A stretch of DNA of 64,000 bases from Escherichia coli (lineage in GTDB: Bacteria; Pseudomonadota; Gammaproteobacteria; Enterobacterales; Enterobacteriaceae): NCBI RefSeq assembly GCF_044324875.1, contig NZ_CP172186.1. One strand, given 5' to 3'. Positions 2,081 through 23,223 of this stretch are shown one piece after another. The notes under the pieces were generated by a model, which was given only the letters and a program-made list of their open reading frames with translations, was not told the origin of the DNA and did not search any database. The position numbers and the translations under genes are program-made. The stretch's first letter is position 1; the number at the start of each line of letters is the position of its first letter.

Positions 2081-2462
2081 AGTATGACGGAGACGGGCGG
2101 GCAACTGCCCGTTTCTTTTCCGGTAAAGGATGTCGCCATGCTCCTCTTTTTACTGCGCCGGCTGACGCGGCGCGGCATAAACGCTGCCTGTGGTCAGTGT
2201 CCCGCGTCCGGTGGGCACGGGACGGGCGCTTTTACCGCTCCCGGCTGGCGTCGGTGACAGTGTACGCCAGCCTGTCGCCCTTTTCTGATGAACGCCCTTC
2301 AAGCCGCTTTCGCGGCATAACCTTGCCGTCAAACAGACGACGGCTGCGGTATTCCACGGTCGGCCTGACCCGTTACCGGACGCGGTGAACAGCCCACAGG
2401 CAGCGGGGAACGGGCACCACAGGGGTGCCCTCCCGGTGCCCCCTGTAAGAGAAGGAGCTGTT

Positions 2463-3146
2463 ATGTCCCGTTTTATCCTGGGTGACTGCGTGCGTGTTAT
2501 GGCCACGATTCCTGATAACGCCATTGATTTCATATTAACCGATCCGCCATATCTCGTCGGTTTCCGTGACCGTTCCGGGCGCACCATTGCCGGTGACGTT
2601 AATGATGACTGGCTGCAACCGGCCTGTAATGAGATGTACCGCGTACTCAAAAAAGACGCGCTGATGGTCAGCTTCTACGGCTGGCACCGTATTGACCGCT
2701 TTATGGCGGCCTGGAAACGCGCCGGATTCAGCGTGGTTGGCCACCTGGTCTTCACCAAAAACTACACATCCAAATCTGCGTATGTCGCGTACCGCCACGA
2801 ATGCGCTTACATCCTGGCAAAGGGCAGTCCGGCCCGGCCCCGTAACCCGCTGCCGGATGTGCTGGGCTGGAAATATTCGGGCAACCGCCATCACCCGACG
2901 GAAAAGCCCGTTACCAGCCTGCAACCGCTGATTGAGAGCTTCACACATCCGAACGCGATTGTGCTGGATCCGTTTGCAGGCAGCGGTTCAACCTGCGTGG
3001 CCGCCCTTCAGTCCGGACGCCGGTATATCGGTATCGAGCTGCTTGAACAGTATCACCGTGCCGGACAGCAACGACTGGCCGCCGTGCAACGGGCCATGCA
3101 GCAGGGGGCCGCGAATGATAACTGGTTTATGCCGGAGGCTGCGTAA
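2463..3146 (+). CDS. orphan DNA methyltransferase (amino-methyltransferase, DPPY motif)
   Basis: 227 aa; ...FILTDPPYLVGF... catalytic motif and ...LDPFAGSGST... AdoMet-binding motif; GAAGGAG RBS; no adjacent restriction gene. Confidence 0.85.
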   Translation: MSRFILGDCVRVMATIPDNAIDFILTDPPYLVGFRDRSGRTIAGDVNDDWLQPACNEMYRVLKKDALMVSFYGWHRIDRFMAAWKRAGFSVVGHLVFTKNYTSKSAYVAYRHECAYILAKGSPARPRNPLPDVLGWKYSGNRHHPTEKPVTSLQPLIESFTHPNAIVLDPFAGSGSTCVAALQSGRRYIGIELLEQYHRAGQQRLAAVQRAMQQGAANDNWFMPEAA

Positions 3147-6289: not shown

Positions 6290-6875
6290 AAAGAACCTTC
6301 TTACACATGCGCCCCTTCGGCTCCCGGCTGCCTGGCGGCATCCGGTCGTCAGGCCCGACTCCGACAGGCAGCTGCTGGCGCACCCGCCAGTCTCCGCCGA
6401 ACCCGCTGGCGCGGTTTCGGGCTGTCGCTACGGTCCGATGCGTGAAAACCCGGGCTTGCAGCGACCGTTCCGGTCGCGCCGCCTCTGTCGCGCCGTGACC
6501 TGCGCTCCCTGCACACCTGACGGTGTGTGAGGAAACTGCGCCTGATGGCGCAGCAGTCCTCCCTCCTGCCGCCACCTCTGCGGCCTGTTTCCCGCTGTGG
6601 ACTTTCCGGGGGGCAGACGTAACCCCCTCCCGTTCCATCTGTCCAGGGTGAGATGCACCGGCCACAAAATTTTTAGCCATGAACCCGGCAAAAAATTTTG
6701 CGTCCGCCCCCGGACAGCTGCCCCGTGAGGCGGTAAACGGGCCCCCATCGGAAAGGTCCACTGCGGGGAGAAACCCCTGTGAAGTGGACGGCAGGAGGAG
6801 CTTTCGCTCCTCTGAAGGGGCACATGAACGTCCCGTCGCCGGTATCCGGTTTATCTCACATCTTTCAGTCAGGAG
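6290..6875 (+). promoter_or_regulatory. single-strand-promoter-like structured element, family B copy 1 (upstream of ssb)
   Basis: ~580-bp GC-rich repeat also found at 17935..18505 and, 3' part only, 20990..21380; contains CCACAAAA(C/T)TTTT...GCGTC(C/T)GCCCCCGGACA(G/A)CTGCCCCGTG core. Confidence 0.5.
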
Positions 6876-6881
6876 GTTCTT

Positions 6882-9800
6882 ATGAGTGCACGTGGTATCA
6901 ACAAGGTCATCCTCGTCGGGGTGCGCCGTTGAAGCGCGGTGTTTTATGGAGTGTTGCCTGAAAAGCAACATGGCTTAGTGGTATAGCCATTGCATACTGT
7001 GGTTAGCCTTGCTTGGTAACAGGCTCGGAGATCCTGAAAAGGAGAGGTGAACATAGCATCCACAGAAAAGGGTGGTGAATATGGAAATCGTTATAAGTAT
7101 CACCATTCAATGCAAGATGTATATGGATAAACTGGGTTTGTTGAAGTCGAGATCTATGTGGGAAACAGGAAACCAATAACGCAGAACGATTGAAGCGTTA
7201 TTCCCGTACTAGCACAAGAAATCCGTCCGACGTTGATTGTGACCACTCTAACGGGCCAGCTATTGATGAAATAGTTAAACGATCGAAAGACATCCTAAGT
7301 ACATCGCATCTCCACACCGTGAAACTACGGGACTACCTAAACTGGATTTATACCCAGCATGGTAGCGGAGTCTCCATAGTACTCAAGGTCGGCCTGTAAT
7401 GGGTTCCGGCAGTCCGCATTATACGGAAGCAGCAAAGGTATAAATCAACCGGAAGGAAGATGAAAGCCTCACAGTGCTGCGGGGAAGGGAGACAGTTGTT
7501 AGATACATCAATCTCTAAGAGGAGGGTTAGCCAATGCTGCCTGATGAACTTGAGAAAAGATTAGATGGAATTGAGGATGCTTCAAAAAAAGGGTATCCAG
7601 TACGTAATCTATACAAAATTGCGTGTGAGCCCGGACTGTGGCTGCAAGCCTACGTGAATATACGGGCCAATGCAGGTGCACTGACTCAAGGTGTATCAAC
7701 AGATACCATTGATGGCTTTTCTATCGAAAGAGCAGAGAAGCTGGCAAAAACATTGCGGAGTAGAGAATACGTAGCGAAACCTGTACGCAGAGTTCAGATC
7801 CCAAAAAAGGACGGAAAAACCAGACCGCTGGGGATTCCAGGTGGAGACGATAAACTGGCGCAAGAAGTAGCAAGAATTATTCTGGAAAGGGTTTATGAAC
7901 CAGTATTCTCTGAACACTCTCATGGATTCAGACCAAAACGTTCGTGTGAAACTGCGCTCAGATCTATTCGTCCAGTCTGGAACGGAGTTAAATGGATCGT
8001 GGATGTTGATATCAAAGGTTTCTTTGACAATATCCCCCACAAACTATTGCTGAATACACTGGCAGAGAAAATTAAGGATAAGAATTTCCTGAAATTAATC
8101 GAACAGTGGCTGAAGGCAGGATATGTGGACAATTGGAAATACCATCGCTCATATTCTGGCACGCCACAAGGTGGGATAATTTCTCCCTTACTGGCAAATA
8201 TATACCTCGACAAACTGGACCGTTTTGTAGAACAGAATTTAATTCCTGCATATACAAGCGGTACAAAACGAAGAGCGAATCCAGATATGAACAGGCTGGC
8301 CCATAAGATTCATAAACTACGAAAGAAAGTAGACGGTATGGCAACTGATTCTGAATCAGAAAAAGAAGCCATAAAGAAAGAAATTGAACGACTGCTTGAA
8401 GAAAAACGTTCTATACCATCTCAGGTCATGAACGATCCAAACTTCAGGCGTATGTACTATGTTCGATATGCTGATGACTTCGTAATCGGTGTCATCGGCT
8501 CGAAGAAAGATGCTGAACATATATCAAGACAGGTCAGAAACTTTATTACTACTTCACTGGGATTGGAAGTTAATGAAGCAAAGACCAGGATCCGCCATAT
8601 CTCAGAAGGAGTTAATTTTTTAGGCTATGAAATCAGACAGGCAGATGCAAAGAAATTGCTGAAGCAGAAAATGCAAGGGCGGCACGCTCTCCGGAGATCC
8701 ACCACAGGAATTGTGCAGCTCTTCGTTCCTGACAATATAGCCGCTAAATTTTGTCACCAAAAGAAATATGGCTGTTATGAGAATGTGAAGGCTGTACATC
8801 GTTCAAGTCTACAAAATCTCAGTGAAGCTGAAATTGTTCTGACTTTCAACGCGGAAATGCGCGGATTGGCGAACTACTACAGTCTGGCGCTGGACATGAA
8901 ATATAAATTATCAAAATTATATTTCATATGGCAAATAAGCCTTTTTAAGACCCTGGCGAATAAACGACGTAGTTCAGTGAATAAAGTCGCCAAATCGCTA
9001 CGGCAAAATAATGGAGATCTGGCTATTACCGTTCAGGCCAAAAATGGATCCCGAAAGATTGAGGTTTTCAAACTCAAACATGTCAATCGCAACCGAACAA
9101 CGATTGTCGATACGGAACCGAGAACCGCACATATCACAACCCGCACAACAGAGATCATGCGTCGATTAGGGGCAAGGATCTGCGAGTATTGTGCGAAGAC
9201 TGGGCGCTGCGAAGTACATCATGTCAGAAAGCTAAAAGACCTGAAGAAAGGTCGTAAGGCCGGATATAAACCCAGCTTGTGGCAACTAATGATGATCGCA
9301 CGCCGCCGGAAAACGATGATTTTGTGCGCAAGTTGCCACGACAAGTTACATAGCGGAAAACTACCCGATTTGAGACAGGAAAAGGGAAGAATACTCCTGC
9401 AACCACCTGTCTCAAGCGGGGATTCTGCTAAATGAGTTTATCCCCAATAAGCTAGCAATGGAGAGCCGTATGCACTGAAAGGTGCACGTACGGTTCGGAG
9501 GGGGGGTAACGGTGATCTAACTCAAGATAAGCAGGACATATTCGCCATTTATCTTGAAAGACCACACGTACCCTACCCTACCGTCTGGGCAATGATCCGG
9601 AAGTCTGTTACATCCCCAACGGGGGCGCAGTGGCAAACCTGCAGGTCGCCACGTCAGAAAGCTGGCGCGACAAACAGACGGGGGAGATGCGGGAGCAGAC
9701 GGAATGGCACCGCGTGGTGCTGTTCGGCAAGCTCGCGGAAGTGGCTGGTGAATATCTGCGCAAGGGCGCGCAGGTCTACATCGAGGGGCAACTCCGTACC

Positions 9801-17934: not shown

Positions 17935-18505
17935 TGTTGTTCTGATGCCCGGAGGCGGGGACACCCTTCGGCTCCCGGCTGCCTGGCGGCATCCGGTCGT
18001 CGGCCCGACTCCGACAGGCAGCTGCTGGCGCACCCGCCAGTCTCCGCCGAACCCGCTGGCGCGGTTTCGGGCTGCCGCTACGGTCCGATGTCTGAAAAAC
18101 CAGGCCTGCAGCGACCGTTCCGGTCGCGCCGCCCCTGTCGCGCCGGAAACGGCGCTCCCTGCACACCTGACGGTGTGTAAGGCCACTGCGCCTGATGGCG
18201 CAGTCAACCCTTCCGCCGCCACCCCTGCGGCCTGTTTCCCGCTGTGGACTTTCCGGGGGCTGAAGCGGCCACAACACGGGGCAGCCGTCCAGGGGAGAGA
18301 TGTACCAGCCACAAAACTTTTTGCCGCAGGCGTCAAAAACTTTTGCGTCTGCCCCCGGACAACTGCCCCGTGCCGTGGCAGTCGCTGCCCCATCGGAAAG
18401 GTCCACTGCGGGGAGAAACCCCGAAGAAGTGGACGGCAGAAGGGGCTTTCGCCCCTCCGGGGGAGCAACCGGTCGGCCCGGCGACCTGATTCAGCAGAAG
18501 GAGAC
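17935..18505 (+). promoter_or_regulatory. single-strand-promoter-like structured element, family B copy 2
   Basis: Near-identical to 6290..6875. Confidence 0.5.
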
Positions 18506-19304: not shown

Positions 19305-19368
19305 TTAACCCTTGCCGTCTGCCTGTGCAGGCGGCAGGATACGTTCAGACATCTCACCAGGAGGAACC

Positions 19369-20247
19369 GTGAGTAAGAAGAAAAACACCACAACGCCCAC
19401 GCCGCATGATGCCGCGTTCCGGTCGTTCCTGGCGAATCCCGACGTTGCCAGGGATTTTCTGGAGTTGCATCTTCCTGCGGAGTACCGGCAGTTGTGCGAC
19501 CTGTCCACCCTGAAGCTGGAACCCGCCACCTTTGTTGAGCCGGACCTGCATCAGTACGCCAGCGATATCCTCTGGAGTGTGAAAACCACCGGGGGTGAAG
19601 ACGGCTATGTTTATACGCTCATCGAGCACCAGAGCACCGAAAATCTGTACATGCCTTTTCGCATGTTACGTTACAGTGTGGCGGCGATGCAGAGACATCT
19701 GGAGCAGCACAAAACGTTGCCACTGGTCATTCCGGTGCTGTTCTATCACGGTGAGCGCAGCCCGTACCCGTACAGCATGAACTGGCTGGACTGTTTTGAG
19801 AATCCGGCACTTGCGGCTAAAATATACACAAAGCCGTTTCCGCTGGTTGATATCACTGTCGTTGATGACAATGAAATCATGAACCATCGCCGGATGGCCG
19901 CACTGACGCTGCTGATGAAGCATATCCGCCATCGTGACATGATGGAGCTGCTGGACAAACTCCCGCAGGTCATGGTGGAAATTTCAGACGAGCAGGTGCG
20001 TGTTCTGATTCATTACATCGTTAACGCAGGGGACACTGTATCACCGGAATTTATGCGGGCGCTGGCCGAGCGCCTGCCGCAGCATGAGGATAAACTGATG
20101 ACAATCGCAGAACGTCTTGAGCAGAAAGGTGCGCTTGAAAAAGCCCTGGCCATTGCGCGTCAGCTTCAGAAAATGGGGATGACACCTGAGCAGATTAAGC
20201 AGGCCACCGGACTTTCCGAAGCTGAACTGAAAAAAGTCATTCACTGA
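19369..20247 (+). CDS. rpn: Rpn-family (YhgA-like, PDDEXK) recombination-promoting nuclease
   Basis: 292 aa from GTG after AGGAGG RBS; ...TPTPHDAAFRSFLANPDVARDFLELHLP...DILWSVKT...YTLIEHQSTENLYMPFRMLRYSVAAM... typical Rpn N-terminal nuclease domain. Confidence 0.8.
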   Translation: MSKKKNTTTPTPHDAAFRSFLANPDVARDFLELHLPAEYRQLCDLSTLKLEPATFVEPDLHQYASDILWSVKTTGGEDGYVYTLIEHQSTENLYMPFRMLRYSVAAMQRHLEQHKTLPLVIPVLFYHGERSPYPYSMNWLDCFENPALAAKIYTKPFPLVDITVVDDNEIMNHRRMAALTLLMKHIRHRDMMELLDKLPQVMVEISDEQVRVLIHYIVNAGDTVSPEFMRALAERLPQHEDKLMTIAERLEQKGALEKALAIARQLQKMGMTPEQIKQATGLSEAELKKVIH

Positions 20248-20308: not shown

Positions 20309-20527
20309 ATGACGATTGCAGAACGTCTTATACAGAAAGGTTTCGACGAGGGTTTTAAAGAAGGTTTTAAACAAGGTTTTAAACAAGGTTTTAAACAAGG
20401 AGCTCTTGAAGTGGCGCGGGAAATAGCCTGCCGGCTTCGGGATATAGGCTGGTCGCCGGAACGGATTCAGGAGGTCACGGGACTTTCCGGTGAAGAACTG
20501 AAAAAGCTGTTTCCTGATGAGCAGTAG
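20309..20527 (+). CDS. free-standing Rpn C-terminal-tail (RpnS-like) small protein with GFKQ repeats
   Basis: 72 aa MTIAERLIQKGFDEGFKEGFKQGFKQGFKQGALEVAREIACRLRDIGWSPERIQEVTGLSGEELKKLF; parallels the last ~50 aa of the upstream Rpn (MTIAERLEQKGALEKALAIARQLQKMGMTPEQIKQATGLSEAELKKVIH); AGGAG RBS. Confidence 0.65.
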   Translation: MTIAERLIQKGFDEGFKEGFKQGFKQGFKQGALEVAREIACRLRDIGWSPERIQEVTGLSGEELKKLFPDEQ

Positions 20528-20557: not shown

Positions 20558-20809
20558 TCACACATCCTCTGCCGTTTCCCCCAGTTCATTTTCCAGTCGC
20601 CTGATGATATCTGCCTTACGCATCCCCTGCATGTGAGGCAGCAGGTCACGGACTGAAAGTGCCTGGGTGGTCCTCCAGACGGTGACGTCCACCTGTTCCG
20701 CATTTTCCCAGGCGTGCCATGTTCTCTGCGTCACGCCAAATTCTCTGGCCGCTTTTTCGCGTGACCAGAGCATGCTTTTTCGCCAGATTCGCAGTTCCCA
20801 TCCGGTCAT
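20558..20809 (-). CDS. putative helix-turn-helix regulator
   Basis: 83 aa; ...WSREKAAREFGVTQRTWHAWE... HTH-like segment; AAGGTG RBS. Confidence 0.5.
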   Translation of the reverse strand: MTGWELRIWRKSMLWSREKAAREFGVTQRTWHAWENAEQVDVTVWRTTQALSVRDLLPHMQGMRKADIIRRLENELGETAEDV

Positions 20810-20823
20810 AAAACACCTTTGAA

Positions 20824-20908
20824 AAAGTGAAAAAACTTCACTTTATTTTATCATCACAATTGCCAAATCAGCGCGATAAATAAGTGTAAAAAAGTGAAGA
20901 AATTTCAC
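20824..20908. promoter_or_regulatory. two palindromic operator-like sites AGTGAA-N5-TTCACT
   Basis: AAAGTGAAAAAACTTCACTTT at 20824..20844 and AAAGTGAAGAAATTTCACTTT at 20890..20910, upstream of the minus-strand HTH gene. Confidence 0.45.
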
Positions 20909-20989
20909 TTTTTTTGGTTGTAAATGTCGTGCGGTTTTCTCTGTTTTCACCTGTGCGGGAGTGGTGTGCCAGTGACCACCACATGCCAT

Positions 20990-21380
20990 TGTTGTGCCGT
21001 CGTTTTTCTTCAGTCGCGCCGGATGCGGCGCTCCCTGCACACCTTACGGTGTGTAAGGCCACTGCGCCTGATGGCGCAGCTGCCTCTGCCTGTCTGCCGC
21101 CGCACTGCGGCCTGTTCTCCGCAGACGGACTTTCCGGGGGTACATACACGACCACATCCCGTTTCAGTCGTCCAGGGGAGAGATGTACCAGCCACAAAAC
21201 TTTTTGCCGCAGGCGTCAAAAACTTTTGCGTCTGCCCCCGGACAACTGCCCCGTGACGTGGTGAGCGTCCCCCGTCGGAAAGGTCCACTGCGGGGAAATC
21301 CCCGAAGACCCGGACGGCAGAAGGAGCTTCGCTCCTCCGGGAAATGACCTGGCTGACCCGGCAGTCGTGACGATGAGGAG
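20990..21380 (+). promoter_or_regulatory. single-strand-promoter-like structured element, family B copy 3 (3' two-thirds only)
   Basis: Matches the 3' part of 6290..6875 and 17935..18505. Confidence 0.45.
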
Positions 21381-21385
21381 ACAAT

Positions 21386-22237
21386 GTGATGAATCAGACT
21401 TTACCCACTGCTGACCTGAATACTGCCGGCACGACAGATGTTATTCCGTCTGTGGCTATCGACCGCATCATCGCGCAGCGTAACGAAGGTATTGCACTGT
21501 TCATGCAGGCGATGGAATGCCTGGCGACAGCGCGCAGGATTCTGCTCGATGCTTCCGGTGACATTTTTCTCTACGGGTTTGAAGACTGCGTGACTGACTC
21601 CGTTCGATGCATGGATAAACCGGAAGAAGCGAAAAGGAATATCACCCGTCTTGCCGACCGGAAAATCTGGGACCGCCTGATGACAGATACGGGCATGTAC
21701 ACCTTCATGAGTTCATGCCAGCGTGATGAGTGGAACAGCCAGCTGATGAGCGACACCTGTCCTGAAATCACCCTGGACAATGTACTGGCAACATTCCGCC
21801 ATCTTAATGCCAGCAAGATGCAGACATTTGAACAGGGACTGATTGATGTCTACCGGAAATTGTCATGGGATTACAGAACCAATAATCCCTGCCGTCTGGG
21901 CAAGAAAATCATTATTGAAAACCTGCTGTACCGCTGGAGTAACGGGCGTGTGACGCTGGACTGCAGCAGACGGGAGGCACTGGATGACCTGGTACGTCCG
22001 TTTTATCTGCTGGAGGGGCGCAACGTTCCTGACTTCAGGAACAGCATCGGGGCGCAGTATGGTGAATTTCTCAGGAACGGCGACAATGTCGGTAAGTTGT
22101 TAGAAGGGGAATATTTTACGGTGCGTGGCTACCAGAAAGGGACCGTACACATTGTCTTTAAGCGTTCTGACCTTGTTGAAAAACTGAATGATATTATTGC
22201 ACGGCATTATCCTGGTGCATTGCCGCCACGAGTCTGA
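21386..22237 (+). CDS. hypothetical protein directly downstream of a family-B element
   Basis: 283 aa; GAGGAG RBS; hairpin plus T-run at 22248..22280 follows. Confidence 0.6.
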   Translation: MMNQTLPTADLNTAGTTDVIPSVAIDRIIAQRNEGIALFMQAMECLATARRILLDASGDIFLYGFEDCVTDSVRCMDKPEEAKRNITRLADRKIWDRLMTDTGMYTFMSSCQRDEWNSQLMSDTCPEITLDNVLATFRHLNASKMQTFEQGLIDVYRKLSWDYRTNNPCRLGKKIIIENLLYRWSNGRVTLDCSRREALDDLVRPFYLLEGRNVPDFRNSIGAQYGEFLRNGDNVGKLLEGEYFTVRGYQKGTVHIVFKRSDLVEKLNDIIARHYPGALPPRV

Positions 22238-22322
22238 TTAAACAGAAAAGCCCTGGTATTTATGCCGGGGCTTTTTTTTCTGTAATCATCATAATCTCAG
22301 AACACGATGTGACATTGTCACA

Positions 22323-22664
22323 TCAATTGTTGTTCATATCGATGCCATCTTTCCTGCCTGAATCTGTCTTTTTAGGTGCTGTTTTAGAGGAAGAACGGCG
22401 GGATGTTTTTTTCGATTCTGCTTCCCGAATAATGTCACGAAGTGCCTTCTCTCCTACTTCATACCCTGCATTTTTGAGCGTGTCACGAATATCTGCCAGT
22501 GTATAACCCTTTGTCCTTACCAGGACAATAATGTCATCACGAATGGCATCAAGAAAATCACGCAATGTTTTCCGTTGAGCGGTGAGATCTGGCAATTCCG
22601 ATAAAGCAGCTTTTGCCAGCTGGATGTCATCATCTGAGTAAAATTTTTTAGAAGCCATTGGCAC
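22323..22664 (-). CDS. hypothetical protein with basic C-terminal tail, divergent from oriT
   Basis: 113 aa; K/R/S-rich tail ...KKTSRRSSSKTAPKKTDSGRKDG. Confidence 0.5.
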   Translation of the reverse strand: MPMASKKFYSDDDIQLAKAALSELPDLTAQRKTLRDFLDAIRDDIIVLVRTKGYTLADIRDTLKNAGYEVGEKALRDIIREAESKKTSRRSSSKTAPKKTDSGRKDGIDMNNN

Positions 22665-22699
22665 TTTCTCTCCGTTTAATCTTGAAGCCTGATTTTATC

Positions 22700-22885
22700 A
22701 TCAAAAACTGACTCCTGGCAGGGCTGCGCCCTGCCTCTGCCGTCTGCATAAGACTATGATGCACAAAAATAACAGGCTATAATGGCATGAAAAACGGGAC
22801 AGGATGTGTAATCGTATAACCGCGCACGCACGGCTATACGATTACCACCTGGTCAGGGCTTAGCCCCGACACCCCGGTAAGGAGC
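22700..22885. other. oriT: origin of transfer (oriT) region upstream of nikA
   Basis: Intergenic region with inverted repeat GTAATCGTATA...TATACGATTAC (22810..22848) and hairpin GGCAGGGC-TGC-GCCCTGCC; location immediately 5' of nikA. Confidence 0.65.
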
Positions 22886-22890
22886 AGACC

Positions 22891-23223
22891 ATGAGTGAGA
22901 AGAAAACCCGAAGTGGCAGTGAGAAACGGCAAAAGAATGTCCTCATTGCTGTTCGTTTTTCACCAGAAGAGGCTGAGATTGTTAAAGAAAAGGCAGAAAA
23001 AAACGGACTGACAGTTTCAACTCTGATAAGAAAAACTGTGCTGGGAAAACAGATAAATGCCCGCATTGATGAAGATTTTTTGAAAGAGCTGATGCGTCTT
23101 GGTCGCCTGCAGAAGCATCTGTTTGTGGAAGGAAAACGCACGGGAGATAAAGAGTATGCAGAGGTTCTCGTTGCTATTACAGAACTTGCTAATACTCTGC
23201 GAAGAGATTTAATGGGACGCTGA
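22891..23223 (+). CDS. nikA: relaxosome accessory protein NikA (ribbon-helix-helix)
   Basis: 110 aa, size and position as in IncI1 oriT operon; NVLIAVRFSPEEAEIVKEKA... RHH-like. Confidence 0.8.
   Translation: MSEKKTRSGSEKRQKNVLIAVRFSPEEAEIVKEKAEKNGLTVSTLIRKTVLGKQINARIDEDFLKELMRLGRLQKHLFVEGKRTGDKEYAEVLVAITELANTLRRDLMGR

Follow-up and report, generated by a model that had tools for sequence, protein, structure and literature searches.

Transcription from the leading region of the IncI1 plasmid pESBL has been followed in transconjugants by RNA sequencing, with Wen et al. 2025 reporting six leading-region operons induced up to ~500-fold at 15 min (PMC12672017). In the same work, three of those six operons are driven by ssi1–3, 'class 1' promoters with the highest transcription rates, which are active as single-stranded DNA (ssDNA) promoters in the transconjugants and whose start sites were placed by 5′ rapid amplification of cDNA ends (PMC12672017). 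Among leading-region protein families, Supplementary Table 1 of Samuel et al. 2024 lists family 24 as 'Uncharacterized; DUF4942; Methyltransferase' in the T-strand orientation, with 2,171 members in leading regions vs 1 elsewhere, and a second DUF4942 family, number 76, with 551 vs 6. Here we describe a gene of this kind in a 64,000-nucleotide stretch of Escherichia coli DNA (contig NZ_CP172186.1 of assembly GCF_044324875.1, hereafter the window), in which positions 21389–22237 of the plus strand encode a 282-residue DUF4942 protein, the product of ygfB in R64 and Hp22 in pESBL. The best overall explanation of this gene, for which we would put the chances slightly short of even, is an early establishment or anti-restriction factor acting on the recipient side by an unproven mechanism.

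The open reading frame (ORF) at 21386–22237 (+) that was picked out from the sequence alone is a genuine gene and not a chance ORF, as borne out by a match to the Pfam family DUF4942 (PF13708; E = 2.4e-52), 2,083 related clusters, a ratio of nonsynonymous to synonymous substitution rates (dN/dS) of 0.135, and a structural model with a mean predicted local distance difference test score (pLDDT) of 92.5. The in-frame GTG at 21386 is an alternative start, with the RefSeq start at ATG 21389 preceded at 8 nt by a ribosome-binding site read from the sequence as GAGGAG (21375–21380, +). The Pfam match (score 177.8) is full-length and significant, covering residues 91–276 of the protein and model positions 5–189/190, and the family residues W94, L158, D200, H254, and N267 are all present. 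In an exhaustive search of 1.84 billion representative proteins, the 2,083 related clusters were counted at 50% identity, over which the gene is full-length and intact from 98% to ~30% identity.

The product is identical to RefSeq WP_112038154.1, so named on the E. coli plasmid pLH50-c-A (IncK2/Z, MOBP, MPF_I), to which window positions 20800–22900 are 100% identical. This identity is local, with the window diverging further upstream, where it carries a group II intron. A total of 2,250 plasmid records match the same positions, 1,925 of them with at least 80% coverage and nearly all of these 95–99% identical, mostly from Escherichia, Salmonella, and Shigella hosts; the stretch is carried by ~2,000 IncI-complex plasmids. 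The ORF is thus the IncI-complex leading-region gene ygfB/Hp22, encoding a standalone DUF4942 protein, and it is already on record, with an identical protein in RefSeq, a family in Pfam, and a place among the leading-region-enriched families in print; the novelty implied by the sequence-only reading, which called the gene unknown and saw no recognisable catalytic motif in it by eye, does not survive identification as DUF4942 and family 24 of Samuel et al. 2024. Its observation that the gene has no assigned function does hold, with no NCBIfam match to the protein, no solved homologue, and no paper found in our literature search that assigns a function to DUF4942, ygfB, ydiA, or Hp22.

Directly upstream of the gene, at 21011–21339 on the minus strand, lies ssi1 or 'Frpo1', a class-1 ssDNA promoter that aligns over 329/329 nt with ColIb-P9 (AJ238399.1:1459–1787) at 99.4% identity, with the reference sequences of the ssi/Frpo elements taken from Supplement 4 of Samuel et al. 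The element ends 50 nt upstream of the gene, its hairpin forms in the transferred (minus) strand, and its orientation drives transcription rightward into the DUF4942 gene, the arrangement of a class 1 ssi/Frpo leading-region gene. Folding of the minus strand over 20960–21385 gives −116 kcal/mol, with z = −7.65 relative to shuffled controls. An ssi1-like element is kept at 84% identity upstream of a 78%-identical ortholog, and a Frpo-like hairpin of another kind (z = −7.1) lies ahead of a plasmid ortholog with 57% identity, from which it appears that the tie between the DUF4942 gene and single-strand promoters is older than ssi1 itself.

The repeat to which ssi1 belongs occurs in three copies in the window, at 6815–6485 (Frpo3, 99.4%), 18459–18135 (Frpo2, 89%), and 21339–21011 (Frpo1). 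The third copy of a dispersed repeat had been noticed in the letters directly upstream of the gene, and correctly so; its description as a partial element was mistaken, the ssi1 copy being a complete 329-nt element at 99.4% identity, with copies 1 and 2 merely sharing ~170 nt of extra flank. This flank (window 6313–6485 and 17964–18135; 93–95% identity) extends beyond the defined 326–331-nt ssi elements on their oriT-distal side and is missing at ssi1; it might represent an extended structure, a site for priming, or an additional signal.

The polarity of transfer follows from oriT. The oriT core at 22799–22845 (minus strand) comprises the motif CATCCTG/T at 22799–22806 (the slash marks the nick), which we take to be the MOBP nick site on the consensus YATCCTG/Y, beside an 18-nt inverted repeat (22808–22825 and 22828–22845). 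The oriT defined in pESBL by transposon sequencing (Tn-seq; 70354–70436) maps to ~22796–22878 in the window and agrees with this motif, and the distance of 1,461–1,789 nt from the nick site to ssi1 equals the published ColIb-P9 coordinates of 1459–1787. Since the nick motif lies on the minus strand, it is this strand that is transferred, its 5′ end being at ~22799 and its entry proceeding toward lower coordinates. The octamer YATCCTGY occurs 20 times in the window vs 7.95 ± 2.87 expected from dinucleotide-preserving shuffles, with none of 100 shuffles reaching 20; among these copies that at 22799–22806 is the only one to adjoin the oriT inverted repeat.

The nick site lies ~560 nt past the DUF4942 stop codon, placing the gene 0.56–1.41 kb from it, with the transferred strand serving as the template strand of the gene, as expected of a class 1 leading-region gene. 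The gene is closed by a bidirectional intrinsic terminator at 22246–22279, which consists of an A-run, a G+C-rich stem (22250–22256/22265–22271), and T8; its hairpin and U8 tract fold at −25.9 kcal/mol (z = −6.55), and on the minus strand, too, there is a hairpin with a tail rich in U. Together with its promoter, ribosome-binding site, and terminator, the coding sequence therefore makes up a one-gene unit 0.56–1.8 kb from the nick site. In these respects the sequence-only reading was sound: the terminator behind the gene, the closeness to oriT, and the place of the gene and its promoter among the earliest transferred DNA, within 1.8 kb of the nick, are all confirmed. It erred in calling this the last leading-region gene before oriT, given that a 113-residue YggA/Hp23-like ORF intervenes on the minus strand (22323–22664; YggA in R64, Hp23 in pESBL). 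For the yggA-like gene, the sense strand is the one transferred, and transcription of this gene has to await synthesis of the second strand; it enters first but in the wrong orientation, so that the DUF4942 gene is the first gene transcribable from the entering single strand. As the DUF4942 gene is also the only gene between ssi1 and the terminator, Hp22 would be the ssi1 operon of pESBL. By analogy with ColIb-P9 and pESBL, the gene is very probably expressed early in the recipient; its expression would come as a burst driven by the ssi1 hairpin in the fresh transconjugant and would cease when the DNA has become double-stranded.

The position of the gene might also suggest a donor-side or backbone role, as a relaxosome accessory, a regulator of nikAB or tra genes, or a maintenance gene lying beside oriT by chance. 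The gene is ~560 nt from the nick, and members of the adjacent yggA family regulate transfer genes in pCTX-M3. However, in the pESBL Tn-seq data of Yamaichi et al. 2014, Hp22 (68947–69795, +) scores 1.00 as non-essential, 0.00 for maintenance, and 0.00 for transfer (PMC4288162), and the pOXA-48 homolog is not among the genes named as required for transfer in the pOXA-48 paper. A gene with its own ssDNA promoter and its template on the transferred strand is typical of zygotically induced genes, and homologs exist in phages and islands with no adjacent relaxase. Identification as a relaxosome or maintenance component, which would have deprived the sequence-only reading of its interest in a recipient-side function, has thus not come about, with Hp22 non-essential at 1.00; a donor-side role is already largely refuted by the published Tn-seq, and we consider it very improbable. 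Judging from the orthologous plasmids ColIb-P9 and pESBL, DUF4942 would not be part of the transfer or maintenance machinery.

Comparison with the 78%-identical ortholog, which is found on a diverged Salmonella IncI-type plasmid, gives the dN/dS of 0.135, with the neighbours giving 0.138 (yggA), 0.114 (nikA), and 0.110 (nikB) in the same comparison; the DUF4942 gene is under purifying selection. These values bear on the notion that the gene is what is left of a decaying methyltransferase fusion, or is carried along neutrally with the conserved segment near oriT and has no function of its own. In keeping with such a relic, the gene is dispensable in laboratory matings, and between the close IncK2/Z and IncI-gamma/K1 alleles (L089 vs window 21389–22234) there are 16 nonsynonymous and 6 synonymous differences (dN/dS 0.78), although with 22 differences in all, relaxed or diversifying selection is not separable from noise. 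At greater divergence, however, the dN/dS is like that of yggA, nikA, and nikB, the protein is full-length in 2,083 clusters, its invariant core is preserved, and a dedicated strong promoter and terminator have been kept. The vestigial-remnant reading is rejected on the dN/dS of 0.135, and a hitch-hiker seems to us scarcely credible; donor-side and relic explanations are largely excluded by Tn-seq and dN/dS.

Profile and structure searches, which had been proposed as a check on the gene, found the Pfam family DUF4942 and no relatives among solved structures. An AlphaFold2 model built with 110 homologs (pLDDT 92.5; predicted template modelling score, pTM, 0.82) predicts a long N-terminal helix, a helical bundle (residues 64–158), and an alpha/beta domain (residues 166–273). 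No relative of this model was found among solved structures, sequence searches of the PDB with the single sequence and with a 110-sequence profile gave none, and a search of AFDB50 with the model returned DUF4942 proteins only; the predicted fold is apparently new. The names returned in the first homolog search were all 'DUF4942 domain-containing protein', and the PHROG matches comprised families of unknown function and one 548-residue 'DNA methyltransferase' family.

The protein does not resemble known anti-restriction or defence proteins. Its isoelectric point of 6.35 (DUF4942 family median 7.4) is near neutral, and an acidic DNA mimic was rejected on this basis; neither sequence nor fold places it among the ArdA, Ocr-type DNA mimic, ArdB/KlcA, or ArdC families, and PADLOC returned a single marginal match of 37 residues to a 2TM effector model (E = 0.0012, 16 bits), so that it does not class as a defence component. 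The protein also shows none of the marks of a methyltransferase, with no methyltransferase Pfam domain, no S-adenosylmethionine-binding motif I, and no motif IV ([DNS]PP[YFW]) in a six-frame scan of 21389–22234. Lacking all three, the standalone protein should be unable to methylate alone, and the 'Methyltransferase' labels attached to standalone members in databases are best read as annotation carry-over.

The one functional lead comes from fusions. Searching with a profile built from four long homologs yielded 1,839 proteins, and in the 121 top hits, in which fusion features were counted, 115 are at least 430 residues long, all with an N-terminal DUF4942 region, a linker of ~30 residues, and a C-terminal module. 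This module is a minimal class-I methyltransferase (named MTS in Pfam) with 'FFPTP', 'VLEPSAGxGA', and NPPF motifs, with motif IV reading NPPF in 115 of 116 matches in the 121 sequences. The ~85–95 residues that follow NPPF leave no room for a C-terminal target-recognition domain like that of M.TaqI. The best PDB matches of the module are RsmC-type ribosomal RNA (rRNA) N2-methylguanosine (m2G) methyltransferases (E = 4e-4) and the catalytic domain of M.TaqI (E = 6e-4). W94, L158, D200, H254, and N267 are invariant in the 110 standalone homologs, and W94, D200, H254, and N267 are also 100% conserved in the 115 fusions, while R31, D90, and R203 are kept in 91–98% of sequences across the two sets (~98% in the fusions). 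The shared invariant residues imply that the domain does the same job with or without an attached enzyme.

On this footing we propose, with low confidence, that the 280-residue module is an autonomous, non-catalytic unit which a large sister clade tethers through a flexible linker to a minimal NPPF (N6-adenine-type) methyltransferase. Since the tethered methyltransferase domain has no target-recognition domain of its own, the module would most likely be the substrate-recognising or docking part, recognising a substrate, probably incoming DNA, or docking onto such a methyltransferase. The standalone early protein would then act at the restriction–modification interface without methylating, shielding DNA or engaging a host methyltransferase or restriction complex, and so aid plasmid survival in restricting recipients. 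We regard an establishment or anti-defence role of any kind as somewhat better than an even prospect, and a methyltransferase-linked mechanism specifically as rather unlikely.

In the most specific form of this proposal, DUF4942 would be a new-fold anti-restriction factor, a partner module for methyltransferases with no catalysis of its own. Produced within seconds after the DNA enters, it would either occupy the incoming DNA or capture a host enzyme, be it an N6-adenine methyltransferase or a Type I restriction complex. Lambda Ral is a small early invader protein that modulates Type I modification by acting on the host restriction–modification enzyme, and under the capture model assembly of the host complex would, in a Ral-like manner, be blocked or pushed toward modification. 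Restriction evasion independent of ardA has long been reported for ColIb-P9-type plasmids, and this form of the proposal, if true, could explain part of it; we think it improbable.

Several observations weigh against an anti-restriction role and its proposed mechanism. Transfer into a laboratory E. coli recipient does not require Hp22, which is compatible with an anti-defence role and lends it no positive support, and our literature search found no direct functional data on any DUF4942 protein. The fused module is about equally like rRNA m2G methyltransferases, and consequently the substrate of the fusions could be RNA or protein, not DNA. In a model of the full fusion both domains are confident, with a linker pLDDT of ~60, a pTM of 0.61, and no defined interface between them, which suggests two tethered autonomous units and not one rigid body. 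The fused methyltransferase module has no homolog in the window, and even a weak match to it lies within 6 kb at just 2 of 80 chromosomal loci encoding standalone DUF4942; these loci were found with a 10-sequence subset and are biased to Burkholderiales, Nitrospira, and Enterobacterales chromosomes. Finally, with its invariant Asp/His/Asn set, the domain may itself be catalytic.

The same observations bear on two rival explanations. If DUF4942 were the specificity subunit of a split methyltransferase, it would pair in trans with a separate catalytic subunit, of plasmid or host origin, and direct protective methylation. In favour of this, DUF4942–NPPF fusions form a large and conserved class, standalone and fused forms keep the same invariant residues, and the leading region in the window does encode an orphan DNA methylase (2385–3146). 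The DPPY motif of this methylase, however, is found close to its N-terminus, and the methylase does not resemble the fused module (tblastn E > 0.03); both the scarcity of module matches around standalone genes and the lack of confident interdomain packing in the fusion model also count against such a pairing. With the module missing from the window and weakly matched at 2 of 80 loci, the split-methyltransferase idea is unsupported, and we consider it doubtful. A side observation concerns a Scandinavium plasmid (L092, 5959–6783), on which a 274-residue protein is encoded ~1.1 kb downstream of the DUF4942 ortholog, past yggA-like and nikA-sized ORFs; it has an N6-methyltransferase 'GQFFTP' motif and a motif-I-like 'EPTCGAGG' and no (D/N/S)PP(Y/F) motif, and from its sequence looks like a catalytically dead methyltransferase-like protein near the DUF4942 gene.

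Alternatively, DUF4942 could have enzymatic activity of its own, with the Asp/His/Asn/Trp core forming the basis of, for example, a hydrolase, transferase, or nuclease that modifies or cleaves a host factor or nucleic acid during establishment; the fusions would then be two-enzyme proteins. The strict invariance of the four core residues in 110 standalone and 115 fused sequences and the retention of the three further polar residues would suit an active site, one that might go unrecognised given the want of a fold relative among solved structures, and the fusion domains do seem to be independent units joined by a linker. Yet no known catalytic motif or fold was detected in the protein, invariant polar residues fit a binding pocket equally well, and no toxicity or phenotype was reported in the Tn-seq; an enzymatic function is, in our estimation, not probable. 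We retain the early recipient-side establishment or anti-restriction factor as the best explanation.

The company kept by DUF4942 elsewhere points to mobile elements. Conserved same-strand neighbours at the chromosomal loci form an accessory set typical of integrative elements (integrative and conjugative elements, ICEs, or islands), including RadC/JAB proteins in 34 loci near standalone DUF4942, the CbtA/CbeA toxin–antitoxin pair, DUF932 and TIGR03299 proteins, a YeeP-like GTPase, and a lambda-exonuclease-family (YqaJ-like nuclease) protein. A NikB-like relaxase lies downstream of standalone DUF4942 in 9 loci, and DUF4942 homologs also occur in a phage early region. The leading region of pOXA-48 carries a DUF4942 ortholog in the same orientation; on an IncL pOXA-48-type plasmid (L002, 6070–8129) the ortholog is found just downstream of an IS1-split gene for a DGQHR-domain (DndB-like) protein, a neighbour that may be a further link to DNA modification.

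As for the neighbours in the window, the yggA-like ORF has no Pfam or NCBIfam match, and its RefSeq name, 'molybdopterin-guanine dinucleotide biosynthesis protein MobC', appears to be a misnomer. Its homolog on pCTX-M3, Orf35, represses nikA-nikB-traH 23- to 80-fold (PMC6112013), and by analogy the yggA-like gene is probably a local regulator of the relaxase operon. Upstream of ssi1, an Rpn-family (Transposase_31) gene at 19312–20247 is followed by a 72-residue ORF (20309–20527) that repeats the helix-turn-helix (HTH)-like C-terminal end of the Rpn-family gene and contains a 'GFKQ' repeat. Directly upstream of ssi1 lies an 83-residue HTH regulator (20558–20809, minus strand), which owing to its orientation cannot be transcribed from the entering strand. 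The group II intron inside the leading region has an ltrA-like ORF of 633 residues (7534–9435) and a match to Rfam RF00029 (9461–9581, 67.4 bits). The intron is situated a short way downstream of the ssi3 copy (6485–6815) and upstream of the ssb-region genes, which places it inside a unit under single-strand promoter control; 1–3 ltrA copies are present here in the plasmids that match best.

IncI, IncK, IncB/O, and IncL/M plasmids are major carriers of extended-spectrum beta-lactamase (ESBL) and carbapenemase genes, and thousands of them carry the DUF4942 gene. Within the IncI complex, this is the gene of the incoming strand that the recipient can read first, and it lies behind one of the strongest single-strand promoters. 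About one third of the abundant leading-region families are uncharacterised, and a function for DUF4942 would fill one of the larger blanks; should it be an anti-restriction factor, it would bring a new protein fold and a new way past restriction barriers. Our analysis adds a confident model with no solved relative, a fusion clade with the same invariant residues, the finding that standalone copies rarely lie near such a methyltransferase, and purifying selection. The DUF4942 protein is neither a DNA mimic nor a methyltransferase, and most probably no part of the transfer machinery, and it shares its strictly conserved W/D/H/N core with a module tethered to an NPPF methyltransferase; beyond the apparently new fold and this shared core, nothing here would surprise a specialist. 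As a candidate, the gene is well defined, occurs very widely, and lends itself to experiment.

Compared with the described systems, the window gene is a direct member of Pfam DUF4942, with the same leading-region position and T-strand orientation as the family and no difference from it. In the DUF4942–methyltransferase fusions of phages, ICEs, and chromosomes (~440–580 residues; phrog_6263, 'DNA methyltransferase') the whole 280-residue module aligns, with residues 2–271 of one fusion (P0098) aligned to residues 17–279 of the window protein; the W/D/H/N residues are shared, whereas the window protein has no methyltransferase domain. With lambda Ral the likeness is conceptual only and concerns the host-enzyme form of our proposal, no sequence or structural relation having been found. 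The F leading region has no DUF4942 gene, and the last gene pointing at oriT in F encodes a DUF932 protein (273 residues, WP_001234417.1) that is equivalent in position, size, and orientation. DUF932 genes co-occur with DUF4942 in chromosomal islands; homology between the two proteins was rejected (hhalign probability 0.2%), and they are positional analogues only. The ssi/Frpo-driven early genes of ColIb-P9 and F (ardA, psiB, and ssb among others) encode a DNA-mimic anti-restriction protein, an SOS inhibitor, and an ssDNA-binding protein that have no sequence or fold in common with the non-acidic window protein, whereas the DUF4942 gene shares with these genes the type of hairpin promoter, the strand, and the region, with ssi1 being one of the three class-1 promoters of IncI1 plasmids.

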